Shown one piece after another: positions 5,765-7,264 of a stretch of 48,006 nt of DNA. Position 1 is the first letter of the stretch, and each line of letters starts with the position of its first letter. The translations under genes and the position numbers were made by a program. The notes below the pieces were generated by a model, which saw nothing but the letters and a program-made list of their open reading frames with translations, made no database searches and was not told where the DNA came from. This DNA is from Candidatus Omnitrophica bacterium CG22_combo_CG10-13_8_21_14_all_43_16 (lineage in GTDB: Bacteria > Omnitrophota > Gorgyraeia > Gorgyraeales > Gorgyraeaceae), in contig PCTH01000051.1 in the NCBI GenBank assembly GCA_002771475.1, positions 1-48,006 of the forward strand. The letters run 5' to 3'.

Positions 5765-7264
5765 ATGTTAAAACCTGCCAGGACATTCAGGGGCGGATAC
5801 AAGTTCAAAAATTTTAACGGCCAGGCCAGGCCTGTAATTGTGGAAAACCAGATACCGGCCATAGTGATCATACCGCTCAAGCAGGGTTTTGGCACGGAAT
5901 TGAAAAGCCTGGTTAAAAAGGGAGATGCGGTATTTGCCGGCCAGACAATCGCAAGGGACGACAGCGTTGTTTCATCCCCGATACACTCTTCAGTGAACGG
6001 GGTTGTCGAAGAGGTTAAGCGGATAAATTATTTTAAACGCCAGACCACCATGGTTATCATCCGGACAACCAATGCCTCCGGGGAGATCCCCAGATTGGAA
6101 GGATGCTCGCCGGACTGGGCGAGATTAAGTAATGAAAAAATAGAAGAATTGATTTACCTCTCAGGCGTAAGCTCGCTGGACAGAGAAGGCATCCCTACCC
6201 GTTTTAAAAGCTCGATCATTCCGCCGGAAGAAGTAAAACACCTTATTGTGCATGGCGTGGGCTCAGAGCCTTATAATATCTCTCTGGAGCTATTGCTTAA
6301 AGACAAAAATCTCTTAAATTTTTTAGAAGGCGTAAAGATCCTTAAAAGGATCATGCCTAATTCCAAGGTGCATCTGAGCCTGAATGCGCAAAAGAGAAAC
6401 ATAATAGAACAGGTAACGAAGCTAACATCCCAGTTAGAATGGCTCGACACATATCCGCTGGAACCGAAATATCCCCAGGGCTACGATGAAATACTCGTCC
6501 CCACCATACTCAATCAGAATTTTCCATACGGCTATTCAGCAGCAAATATCGGCGTAGTGATCCTGAATATCCAGGCTGTCCTGGGCGTCTATGAAGCGGT
6601 TTGCGAAGGCAAGCCGTTTATAGAAAGGATTATCGCTATCTGCGGCCCCTCGATAAAAGATAATATCCACATAAAGGTGCGTGTAGGAACGTCTTTAAAA
6701 GATATACTTGCCGGGAGGGTTAAAACCGAAACGCCTGTCAGAGTGGTTCTGAACAGCCTCCTGACTGGATTCCAGTTAAACGATATCAGCTTGCCTGTGG
6801 ACAGGACATTTTCTCATATAGTGGCCATACCGGAAAAAAGGGAAAGGGAATTCCTCTCGTTTATGAGGCCTGGTAAAACCAGGGATTCTTACACAAGGGC
6901 TTTTCTGGCAGAAATACTTCCCTGGGTAAAGAGGGCGCCTGATACCAATGAGCACGGAGAGGAGAGGCCTTGCATCTCCTGCGGTTTCTGCGAAGAGGTT
7001 TGCCCTGTTAAAATAATACCCCATCTCCTGGCCAAGCATGTCCAGCGCAGTCTGATAGACGAGACCCTGATGAACTACGGCATATTTAATTGTATCGAGT
7101 GCGGGCTGTGCAGTTATGTGTGCCCTTCAAAAATATCGCTCATGAAAATCATAAAAGACGGCCAGGATAAGCTTACCATGCAGGGATGCGACAGCACCCA
7201 GTGCATACTGCCTTATTTTAACCTCAAGGGCATAGAAGAATACAGAGGCGTTACAAAACTATAA
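5765..7264 (+). CDS. nqrA: NqrA-like subunit of Na+-translocating NADH:quinone oxidoreductase, retaining two RnfC-type 4Fe-4S motifs
   Basis: It has an RnfC/NqrA N-terminal barrel-sandwich region (IPLKQG..GDAVFAGQTIA..PIHSSVNGVV) and an NqrA-like MRPGKTRDSYTRAFL segment. It is the first gene of an A-F ordered operon. It also carries CISCGFCEEVCP and CIECGLCSYVCP. Confidence 0.8.
   Translation: MLKPARTFRGGYKFKNFNGQARPVIVENQIPAIVIIPLKQGFGTELKSLVKKGDAVFAGQTIARDDSVVSSPIHSSVNGVVEEVKRINYFKRQTTMVIIRTTNASGEIPRLEGCSPDWARLSNEKIEELIYLSGVSSLDREGIPTRFKSSIIPPEEVKHLIVHGVGSEPYNISLELLLKDKNLLNFLEGVKILKRIMPNSKVHLSLNAQKRNIIEQVTKLTSQLEWLDTYPLEPKYPQGYDEILVPTILNQNFPYGYSAANIGVVILNIQAVLGVYEAVCEGKPFIERIIAICGPSIKDNIHIKVRVGTSLKDILAGRVKTETPVRVVLNSLLTGFQLNDISLPVDRTFSHIVAIPEKREREFLSFMRPGKTRDSYTRAFLAEILPWVKRAPDTNEHGEERPCISCGFCEEVCPVKIIPHLLAKHVQRSLIDETLMNYGIFNCIECGLCSYVCPSKISLMKIIKDGQDKLTMQGCDSTQCILPYFNLKGIEEYRGVTKL

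Follow-up and report, generated by a model that had tools for sequence, protein, structure and literature searches.

Two membrane complexes are the closest described relatives of the operon studied here. The first is NQR, an NADH:quinone oxidoreductase that translocates Na+, known from Vibrio cholerae (PDB 7XK3, 8A1U) and also from Proteus, Neisseria, Ruegeria, Parabacteroides and Prevotella. The second is the RNF complex (RnfCDGEAB) of Clostridium tetanomorphum (7ZC6), Acetobacterium woodii (9ERI) and Azotobacter vinelandii (8AHX). NqrA is described as a subunit without cofactor or assigned function, and the route proposed from RNF to NQR is that RnfB was lost, NqrF was gained and the cofactor sites of RnfC decayed (PMC12174285, PMC4014512, PMC9588780). 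A large survey of flavinylation counts any NqrF-containing cluster as NQR (PMC8238504). Here, a six-gene operon was analysed in a window of 48,006 nucleotides (nt), contig PCTH01000051.1 (assembly GCA_002771475.1), of Candidatus Omnitrophica bacterium CG22_combo_CG10-13_8_21_14_all_43_16. The operon has the same six-gene order as the NQR operons named above. We consider, with a probability of about 65%, that it encodes an NQR-type, NADH-driven membrane redox ion pump of an early-branching NQR grade, whose A subunit still binds two [4Fe-4S] clusters inherited from RnfC.

The operon is neither canonical NQR nor RNF. Canonical NQR is excluded by an NqrA that is not cofactor-less and by missed equivalog cut-offs. 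RNF is excluded by the absence of RnfB and of an NAD site in the A subunit, and by membrane subunits that fall outside the RNF clade.

The A subunit (5765..7264, + strand) is a homologue of NqrA and RnfC of 499 amino acids (aa) with two C-x2-C-x2-C-x3-C-P motifs. Motif 1 is CISCGFCEEVCP (aa 403-414, nt 6971-7006, + strand) and motif 2 is CIECGLCSYVCP (aa 443-454, nt 7091-7126, + strand). An earlier note on this DNA had reported two intact motifs, and the translation of 5765-7264 places them exactly at those residues. The motif region matched the 4Fe-4S dicluster domain in Pfam (Fer4_7, E = 3.4e-9; Fer4_17, Fer4_8 and Fer4_9 above their cut-offs), and the cysteine motifs are therefore not due to chance. 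The A subunit was aligned with 19 relatives, 6 canonical NqrA and 11 RnfC, with reference operons taken from PLSDB records and Omnitrophota genomes. All eight cluster cysteines were found in RnfC and in the relatives with an iron-sulfur (Fe-S) A subunit, hereafter Fe-S forms (7/8 in one of the 19). The six canonical NqrA had 0/4 and 0–2/4 cysteines in the two motifs, in line with the note's statement that these positions are degenerate there; a vestige of the second motif, C..VCP.K, is all that is left in the proteobacterial proteins.

The linker that joins the SLBB-like domain to the ferredoxin domain is of the NqrA type (aa 356-400, nt 6830..6964, + strand, as defined by alignment). Its length was 42–45 aa in the Fe-S forms and 44–47 aa in canonical NqrA, with which it can be aligned, versus 9–11 aa in RnfC. 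A linker of about 45 aa is common to the NqrA of V. cholerae, Proteus, Neisseria, Ruegeria, Parabacteroides and Prevotella, and it was absent in 11/11 RnfC.

A degenerate remnant of the FMN-NAD glycine loop of RnfC and NuoF lies at aa 133-150 (nt 6161..6214, + strand; SGVSSLDREGIPTRFKSS). The loop region reads SGVSSLDREGIPTRFK, whereas RnfC has GxGGAxFPTHVK. The earlier note had called the glycine motif unrecognisable; the loop is indeed degenerate, with the residues G-I-P-T still left (GxGGAxFPT to LDREGIPT). The Fe-S forms follow the pattern (L)(D/G)xxGIPTxFKSS at this loop, and canonical NqrA shows no trace of it. The second FMN/NAD motif is ECEPY in RnfC, GSEPY in the Fe-S forms and unrecognisable in canonical NqrA. 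The full GxGGAxFPT and ECEPY motifs were present in 11/11 compared RnfC, and the window A has LDREGIPT and GSEPY instead. Residues G142 and P144 were at least 90% conserved among 54 diverse Fe-S forms, and something may still bind at the former FMN pocket. Judged from these alignments, the A subunit is a mosaic of the eight RnfC cysteines, a linker found only in NqrA and a degraded FMN/NAD glycine loop.

RnfC was the best match of the A subunit in both sequence and fold, and the two share the barrel-sandwich, NuoF-like and 2x[4Fe-4S] ferredoxin domains. The PDB sequence search aligned residues 26-358 to RnfC 7zc6_C (E = 4.8e-53). Residues 251-474 aligned in one piece to V. cholerae NqrA, with the segment of about 45 residues at aa 356-400 included. 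The AlphaFold2 model of A, built from an alignment of 54 homologues, had a predicted local distance difference test (pLDDT) value of 93. Its full-length matches gave TM-scores of 0.78 (query-normalised)/0.88 to RnfC 7zc6_C and 0.70/0.77 to NqrA 7xk3_A. In profile searches, A scored 269.3 bits against rnfC TIGR01945 and passed the cut-off (245.95), and it scored 194 bits against NqrA, below the cut-off.

The B subunit (7275..8345, + strand, 356 aa; PF03116, E = 4e-102) belongs to the NqrB/RnfD family. Its N-terminal stretch of about 42 residues (aa 1-44, nt 7275-7406) aligned with the NqrB of Proteus, Neisseria, Ruegeria, Parabacteroides and Prevotella, and it carries the segment GG..E..F...R..EI.EGF, which is common to proteobacterial NqrB. 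RnfD has neither this N-terminal stretch nor the GG motif. The insertion of 30–50 residues that canonical NqrB has after the first transmembrane segment (TM1) is missing from B. The best profile of B was NqrB NF003756 (296.5 bits, below the cut-off), and rnfD TIGR01946 gave 276.8 bits, above the cut-off. The C subunit (8342..8926, + strand, 194 aa; PF04205, E = 2e-15) is an FMN-binding protein of the NqrC/RnfG family, with a TGAT flavinylation motif at aa 163-166; it scored 72 bits for nqrC and 64 bits for RnfG. The D subunit (NqrD/RnfE; 8930..9565, + strand, 211 aa) scored 226.4 bits against NqrD NF006777, versus 180–198 bits for RnfE. The E subunit (NqrE/RnfA; 9568..10161, + strand, 197 aa) scored 191.5 bits for rnfA and 189.7 bits for nqrE. 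The core-cofactor ligands were kept in the window forms, canonical NQR and RNF: C38/C121 in D and C28/C116 in E, which make up the four Cys of the intramembrane 2Fe-2S cluster, and the flavinylation sites of B (the FMN site TDPVTSP, with its conserved Thr) and C (TGAT).

The F subunit (NqrF; 10158..11231, + strand, 357 aa) has an N-terminal transmembrane helix, a 2Fe-2S ferredoxin domain and an FAD/NADH domain (Fer2, FAD_binding_6 and NAD_binding_1). It passed the NqrF equivalog TIGR01941 with 303.3 bits (cut-off 295), and it lacks two insertions that were present in every canonical NqrF compared. No RnfB was found in the operon, and none scored above the TIGR01944 cut-off in the 91%-complete genome. 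The source genome (1.23 Mb, 92 contigs) has a single Rnf/Nqr-type locus, which is this operon; the missing RNF may be explained by incompleteness. The description given in the earlier note was borne out here: the gene order is nqrABCDEF with a bona fide NqrF at its end, RnfB is lacking, B has an NqrB-type N-terminus, and B and C are Rnf-sized when compared with the reference operons.

Compared with canonical NQR, the window operon has the same NqrF input, A linker, B N-terminus and core ligands, and likewise lacks RnfB. It differs in the eight cluster cysteines and the G-I-P-T remnant of A, in the absence of the post-TM1 insertion of B and the two insertions of F, and in a C subunit shorter by about 60–90 aa. 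Compared with RNF, subunits B, C, D and E are of Rnf size. The differences are NqrF in the place of RnfB, the degraded GxGGAxFPT and ECEPY motifs, a linker of 45 aa versus about 10 aa, and the extra N-terminus of B.

The spread of the Fe-S form was examined by a search of 50%-identity cluster representatives, in which 120 of the best 150 matches to A were full-length proteins. The long linker was present in 92 of these 120 representatives. All eight cysteines were kept in 89/92 long-linker representatives, at 26–67% identity to the query, and two of the other three sequences stop short of the full motif. Each motif cysteine (aa 403-453) was 97–100% conserved in the 92 sequences and belonged to just 37 positions with at least 85% conservation. 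All eight were invariant in the 54-sequence alignment. Such alignments indicate that the cluster cysteines are under purifying selection. They also indicate that the Fe-S form is common, a member of a very large family and not a rare one. The earlier note had thought the protein novel and had suggested a survey for retained motifs. This survey shows that the form is not rare. No description of an Fe-S NqrA, of a hybrid of RnfC and NqrF, or of an NqrF complex with an Fe-S A subunit was found in full-text literature searches. The Fe-S NQR form is widespread in uncultured anaerobes and apparently undescribed.

Close relatives of A were found in 38 species-level genomes, and the loci with sufficient flanking DNA keep the order A-B-C-D-E-F. 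The hosts are mostly Omnitrophota, in which A is up to 93% identical; the others are metagenome-assembled genomes (MAGs) labelled Elusimicrobiota, Armatimonadota, Spirochaetota and Ratteibacteria. A genome of the same genus (G025, 1.7 Mb) has this operon (A 93% identical, C58:1539-3035) and a separate canonical RNF with RnfB (C47:24809-29023). Since both operons coexist in this genome, the Fe-S NQR form and RNF are not redundant. Two divergent members were examined as well. The most RnfC-like of the long-linker A subunits, P0058, adjoins an NqrF-type gene in its cluster. The other, P0148 (locus L075), belongs to a complete A-F operon, and its middle domain already matches Pfam NQRA_2nd.

As to cultured hosts, the profile search gave only MAG and metagenome proteins among the best 120. 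A cluster of B, C, D, E and an NqrF-type gene, branching beside canonical NQR, was found on plasmid pILYOP01 of the cultured fusobacterium Ilyobacter polytropus DSM 2926 (L041, NC_014633.1:59864-74409). No A gene stands beside this cluster (the 5.4 kb upstream hold no long open reading frame (ORF)), and no close A homologue was found in the record. I. polytropus was dropped as a cultured example of an Fe-S NqrA, since the A gene was not found in the record.

Another variation was seen in the last subunit. At two related loci (L029:12426-13376 and L031:12323-13279), the gene product joins an NqrF-type transmembrane helix and 2Fe-2S domain to a thioredoxin-like [2Fe-2S] domain that resembles NuoE (PF01257, E = 1e-46 and 1e-48). 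At L029, an ORF of 603 aa lies about 0.7 kb downstream of the fused subunit, after an ORF of 135 aa. The input module of this pump family seems exchangeable, because these two loci have an NqrF-NuoE-type fusion instead of a full NqrF.

Phylogenetic analysis of B, D and E was performed on 35 operons (715–734 columns), and FastTree, IQ-TREE fast and IQ-TREE quick gave the same result. RNF formed one clade (support 100), canonical NQR formed one clade (100), and the window-type forms formed a third clade (100). Subunits B, D and E of the window fell outside the RNF clade, in agreement with the reading in the earlier note. Locus L075, which has an Fe-S A subunit, grouped with Ilyobacter and canonical NQR (SH-aLRT 97). 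The approximately unbiased (AU) test rejected a single clade of all Fe-S forms (p = 0.026). In the tree of 77 A subunits, from which the linker and ferredoxin columns had been removed, the Fe-S forms spread as a grade from RNF to NQR. Nearest to RNF were P0058, P0039 and P0064, and the sisters of canonical NqrA were P0139, P0119 and P0147, together with P0106, P0126, P0127 and P0148 (support 99).

Since the Fe-S forms make up a grade between RNF and canonical NQR, the Fe-S A subunit would be the ancestral NQR state and the cofactor-less NqrA the derived one, if the root lies on or within RNF. The same ancestry would hold under any root outside canonical NQR. Canonical NQR of Vibrio, Bacteroidota and others would then be a later offshoot in which the clusters were lost. 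The occurrence of an Fe-S A subunit across many relatives of the NQR lineage fixes the order of events from RNF to NQR. The earliest changes were the arrival of NqrF, the A linker and the NqrB N-terminus; the FMN site decayed next, and at the end the clusters were lost and the canonical insertions appeared. The earlier note had described the protein as halfway between Rnf and Nqr. This stands as far as the mixed characters and the paraphyletic grade in RNF-rooted trees are concerned, but the operon is a living early-branching lineage with ancestral states and not a literal intermediate. Across much of its diversity in nature, the NQR lineage has kept an iron-sulfur A subunit, and the Fe-S forms are natural material for asking what NqrA does.

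The function of the operon is most likely that of an NADH:(demethyl)menaquinone oxidoreductase pumping Na+ or H+, as far as can be predicted from the genes. NqrF would be the input module (FAD, 2Fe-2S) and would oxidise NADH. Electrons would then pass from F to D/E, C and B (FMN, then riboflavin) and on to a naphthoquinone, and this transfer would be coupled to the export of Na+ or H+. The clusters of A would be placed like those of RnfC, which take up electrons from RnfD's riboflavin. The A clusters are probably redox-active, and they may lie either in the output path to the quinone or beside it as a one-electron buffer. The extra Fe-S branch in electron transfer that the earlier note had proposed is plausible in view of the strict conservation of the cysteines.

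Two genes of quinone synthesis follow F. The first encodes a menA-type 1,4-dihydroxy-2-naphthoate (DHNA) polyprenyltransferase (11218..12141, + strand; TIGR00751, 117.5 bits versus a cut-off of 102.15) and overlaps the end of F. The second encodes a long-chain polyprenyl diphosphate synthase (12159..13160, + strand; PF00348, E = 1.7e-66), with HepT and solanesyl synthases as its best matches. A UbiA and/or polyprenyl synthase gene was found downstream of F in 12/17 related loci with enough sequence, and L075 adjoins NrfD, a molybdopterin oxidoreductase and a polyprenyl synthase. The quinone would probably be demethylmenaquinone, made by the co-transcribed MenA and polyprenyl synthase from scavenged DHNA. 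The operon is joined to menA and a prenyl synthase gene in a small genome in which no DHNA pathway was found, which suggests that energy metabolism in Omnitrophota depends on quinones and possibly on partners.

Several points weigh against an early-branching NQR pump with a cluster-binding A subunit. For every member of the group, cofactor content, substrate and pumped ion are predictions. Subunits A to E miss the NCBIfam equivalog cut-offs of NqrA-E (score/cut-off: A 151.5/321, B 272.2/349.9, C 71.9/144, D 221.9/244.85, E 189.7/247.55), whereas A and B pass Rnf subfamily cut-offs. The distribution is patchy, and the same-family genomes G037 and G069 have RNF only. The group of Fe-S forms used in the AU test was defined after a tree had been seen. 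The A tree was built with FastTree only and has several long branches, and the root on RNF was taken from the literature and not inferred from the data (PMC4014512, PMC11889175). The source genome (91% complete) had no MenB, MqnA/D, MenG/UbiE above cut-off or cytochrome bd. As no genes for DHNA synthesis or methylation were found, the product would be demethylmenaquinone on imported DHNA. The quinone head group would thus need import, and a quinol oxidiser was not identified in the 91%-complete genome. The NQR of Bacteroidota reduces menaquinone without Fe-S in NqrA; the clusters are therefore not needed for naphthoquinone reduction as such.

Among the other explanations, the one that survives best places the real electron exit at A. 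Electrons would leave riboflavin by way of both [4Fe-4S] clusters and reach an acceptor on or at A, not the quinone site of Vibrio-type NqrB; this acceptor could be a quinone bound where A meets B, or else a partner, soluble or in the membrane. We regard this as rather unlikely, though several observations suit it. The eight cysteines hardly vary, even between very divergent members. The FMN pocket has left remnants (G142, P144 and the EP of SEPY) that are kept in the Fe-S forms and lost in canonical NqrA, which suggests a ligand site in use. The clusters also stand at the RnfC position, which is the output path in RNF (PMC12174285, PMC9588780). Against this exit, no candidate partner gene is conserved beside A across the related loci. 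Moreover, the N-terminal stretch and GG motif specific to NqrB are retained in B, and in canonical NQR these accompany the quinone/inhibitor site, after work on V. cholerae.

We tentatively speculate that the clusters of A could have been the working electron exit of ancestral NQR, handing the electrons of riboflavin on to an acceptor, a naphthoquinone or some other, at a site built from A and the B N-terminus. In this proposal, the window pump would feed a Listeria-like, flavin-based extracytosolic chain on scavenged DHNA. If a cluster exit at the A/B site is true, it would give a mechanistic origin for the 'function-less' NqrA and would bear on the dispute over whether the quinone site lies in NqrA or NqrB.

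The flavin-based extracellular electron transfer locus of Listeria monocytogenes consists of Ndh2, DmkA, DmkB, FmnB/ApbE, PplA and ECF flavin transport (PMC8238504, PMC9973259). The window resembles it in that an NADH dehydrogenase is grouped with genes for a MenA-like prenyltransferase and a polyprenyl synthase, with ApbE and an exported FMN-binding protein, and with a component of the ECF type, in a genome in which no DHNA synthesis was found. It differs in having a six-subunit NQR-type pump in place of Ndh2, and homologues of EetA/EetB were not identified in the window organism. Unlike Listeria, this organism is diderm, and its cluster includes two porin-like genes. A second comparison is the menaquinone-reducing NQR of Prevotella (Segatella) bryantii, an NQR of an anaerobe that works with a naphthoquinone, as is proposed for the window pump. 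The Prevotella-type NqrA (P. nigrescens sequence) lacks the cluster cysteines and falls in the canonical clade, whereas the window A has them. The menaquinone-type NQR of Prevotella has been proposed by reviewers as the older NQR type (PMC12174285).

The cysteine motifs could instead be structural leftovers, with clusters bound or not but carrying no electrons, in an enzyme that works as a canonical NQR does. Canonical NQR works without clusters, and NqrA is thought to be structural (PMC12174285, PMC4014512). We consider this improbable. A useless motif would be expected to decay, as it has in canonical NqrA, but 89 of the 92 sequence clusters retain the eight cysteines and the flanking Pro and Lys at 26–67% identity.

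A recent chimera is much less probable still. In this case, a canonical nqr operon would have recombined with the rnf operon of its own host and so regained a first gene, or a ferredoxin domain, of the RnfC type. Canonical rnf operons do occur in genomes of the same genus and family, and A scores above the rnfC subfamily cut-off. However, A is just 26–30% identical to the RnfC of Omnitrophota and has the NqrA linker. It remains between RNF and NQR after the Fe-S and linker columns are removed, and B, D, E and F are independently pre-canonical, branching outside canonical NQR. In the least probable explanation, the operon encodes a working variant of RNF, a ferredoxin:NAD+ oxidoreductase whose input subunit is unusual. 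The hidden Markov models of the RnfC and RnfD subfamilies are passed and RnfC is the best structural match, but the operon has no RnfB, its terminal subunit is an NADH-oxidising NqrF, and the degraded NAD/FMN loop of A leaves no NAD+ site at the output.

The naming of these proteins is inconsistent. Public records call the same subunits NqrA, RnfC, '4Fe-4S dicluster domain-containing protein', NqrD, RsxE and 'Rnf-Nqr domain containing protein', and no curated family among the public protein records covers the Fe-S NQR form. This exposes an annotation gap, in which one protein is publicly called NqrA, RnfC or '4Fe-4S dicluster domain-containing protein'.

The gene order at the locus is merR-A-B-C-D-E-F, followed by menA and the polyprenyl synthase gene, all on the + strand, tightly packed and with some genes overlapping. 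The MerR-family regulator (5452..5763, + strand, 103 aa; Pfam MerR_1, E = 1.8e-16) has its stop codon 1 nt before the start of A. A merR gene also lies upstream of A in the close relatives L003, L004, L007, L023 and L036. Because this adjacency is seen in several close relatives, merR is probably on the same transcript as A.

Further genes related to flavins and the cell envelope lie downstream of the pump. An ApbE flavin transferase is encoded at 17563..18579 (+ strand; PF02424, E = 2e-76); ApbE is needed for the flavinylation of B and C. It is followed by an exported FMN-binding protein (18584..19174, + strand, 196 aa; PF04205, E = 8.5e-12) with a hydrophobic, signal-like N-terminus and an SGAT motif. 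A pair of porin-like paralogues is encoded at 13157-14479 (440 aa) and 16130-17443 (437 aa), and the two proteins share a signal peptide, a coiled coil and Phe as the C-terminal residue. Both were considered as quinol oxidisers and rejected, as they have these features and no transmembrane bundle or cofactor motifs. A Gx-transporter/EcfT fusion lies at 14916-16136, and a NusG_II gene is also found downstream of the pump, within positions 11218-19174 of the window.

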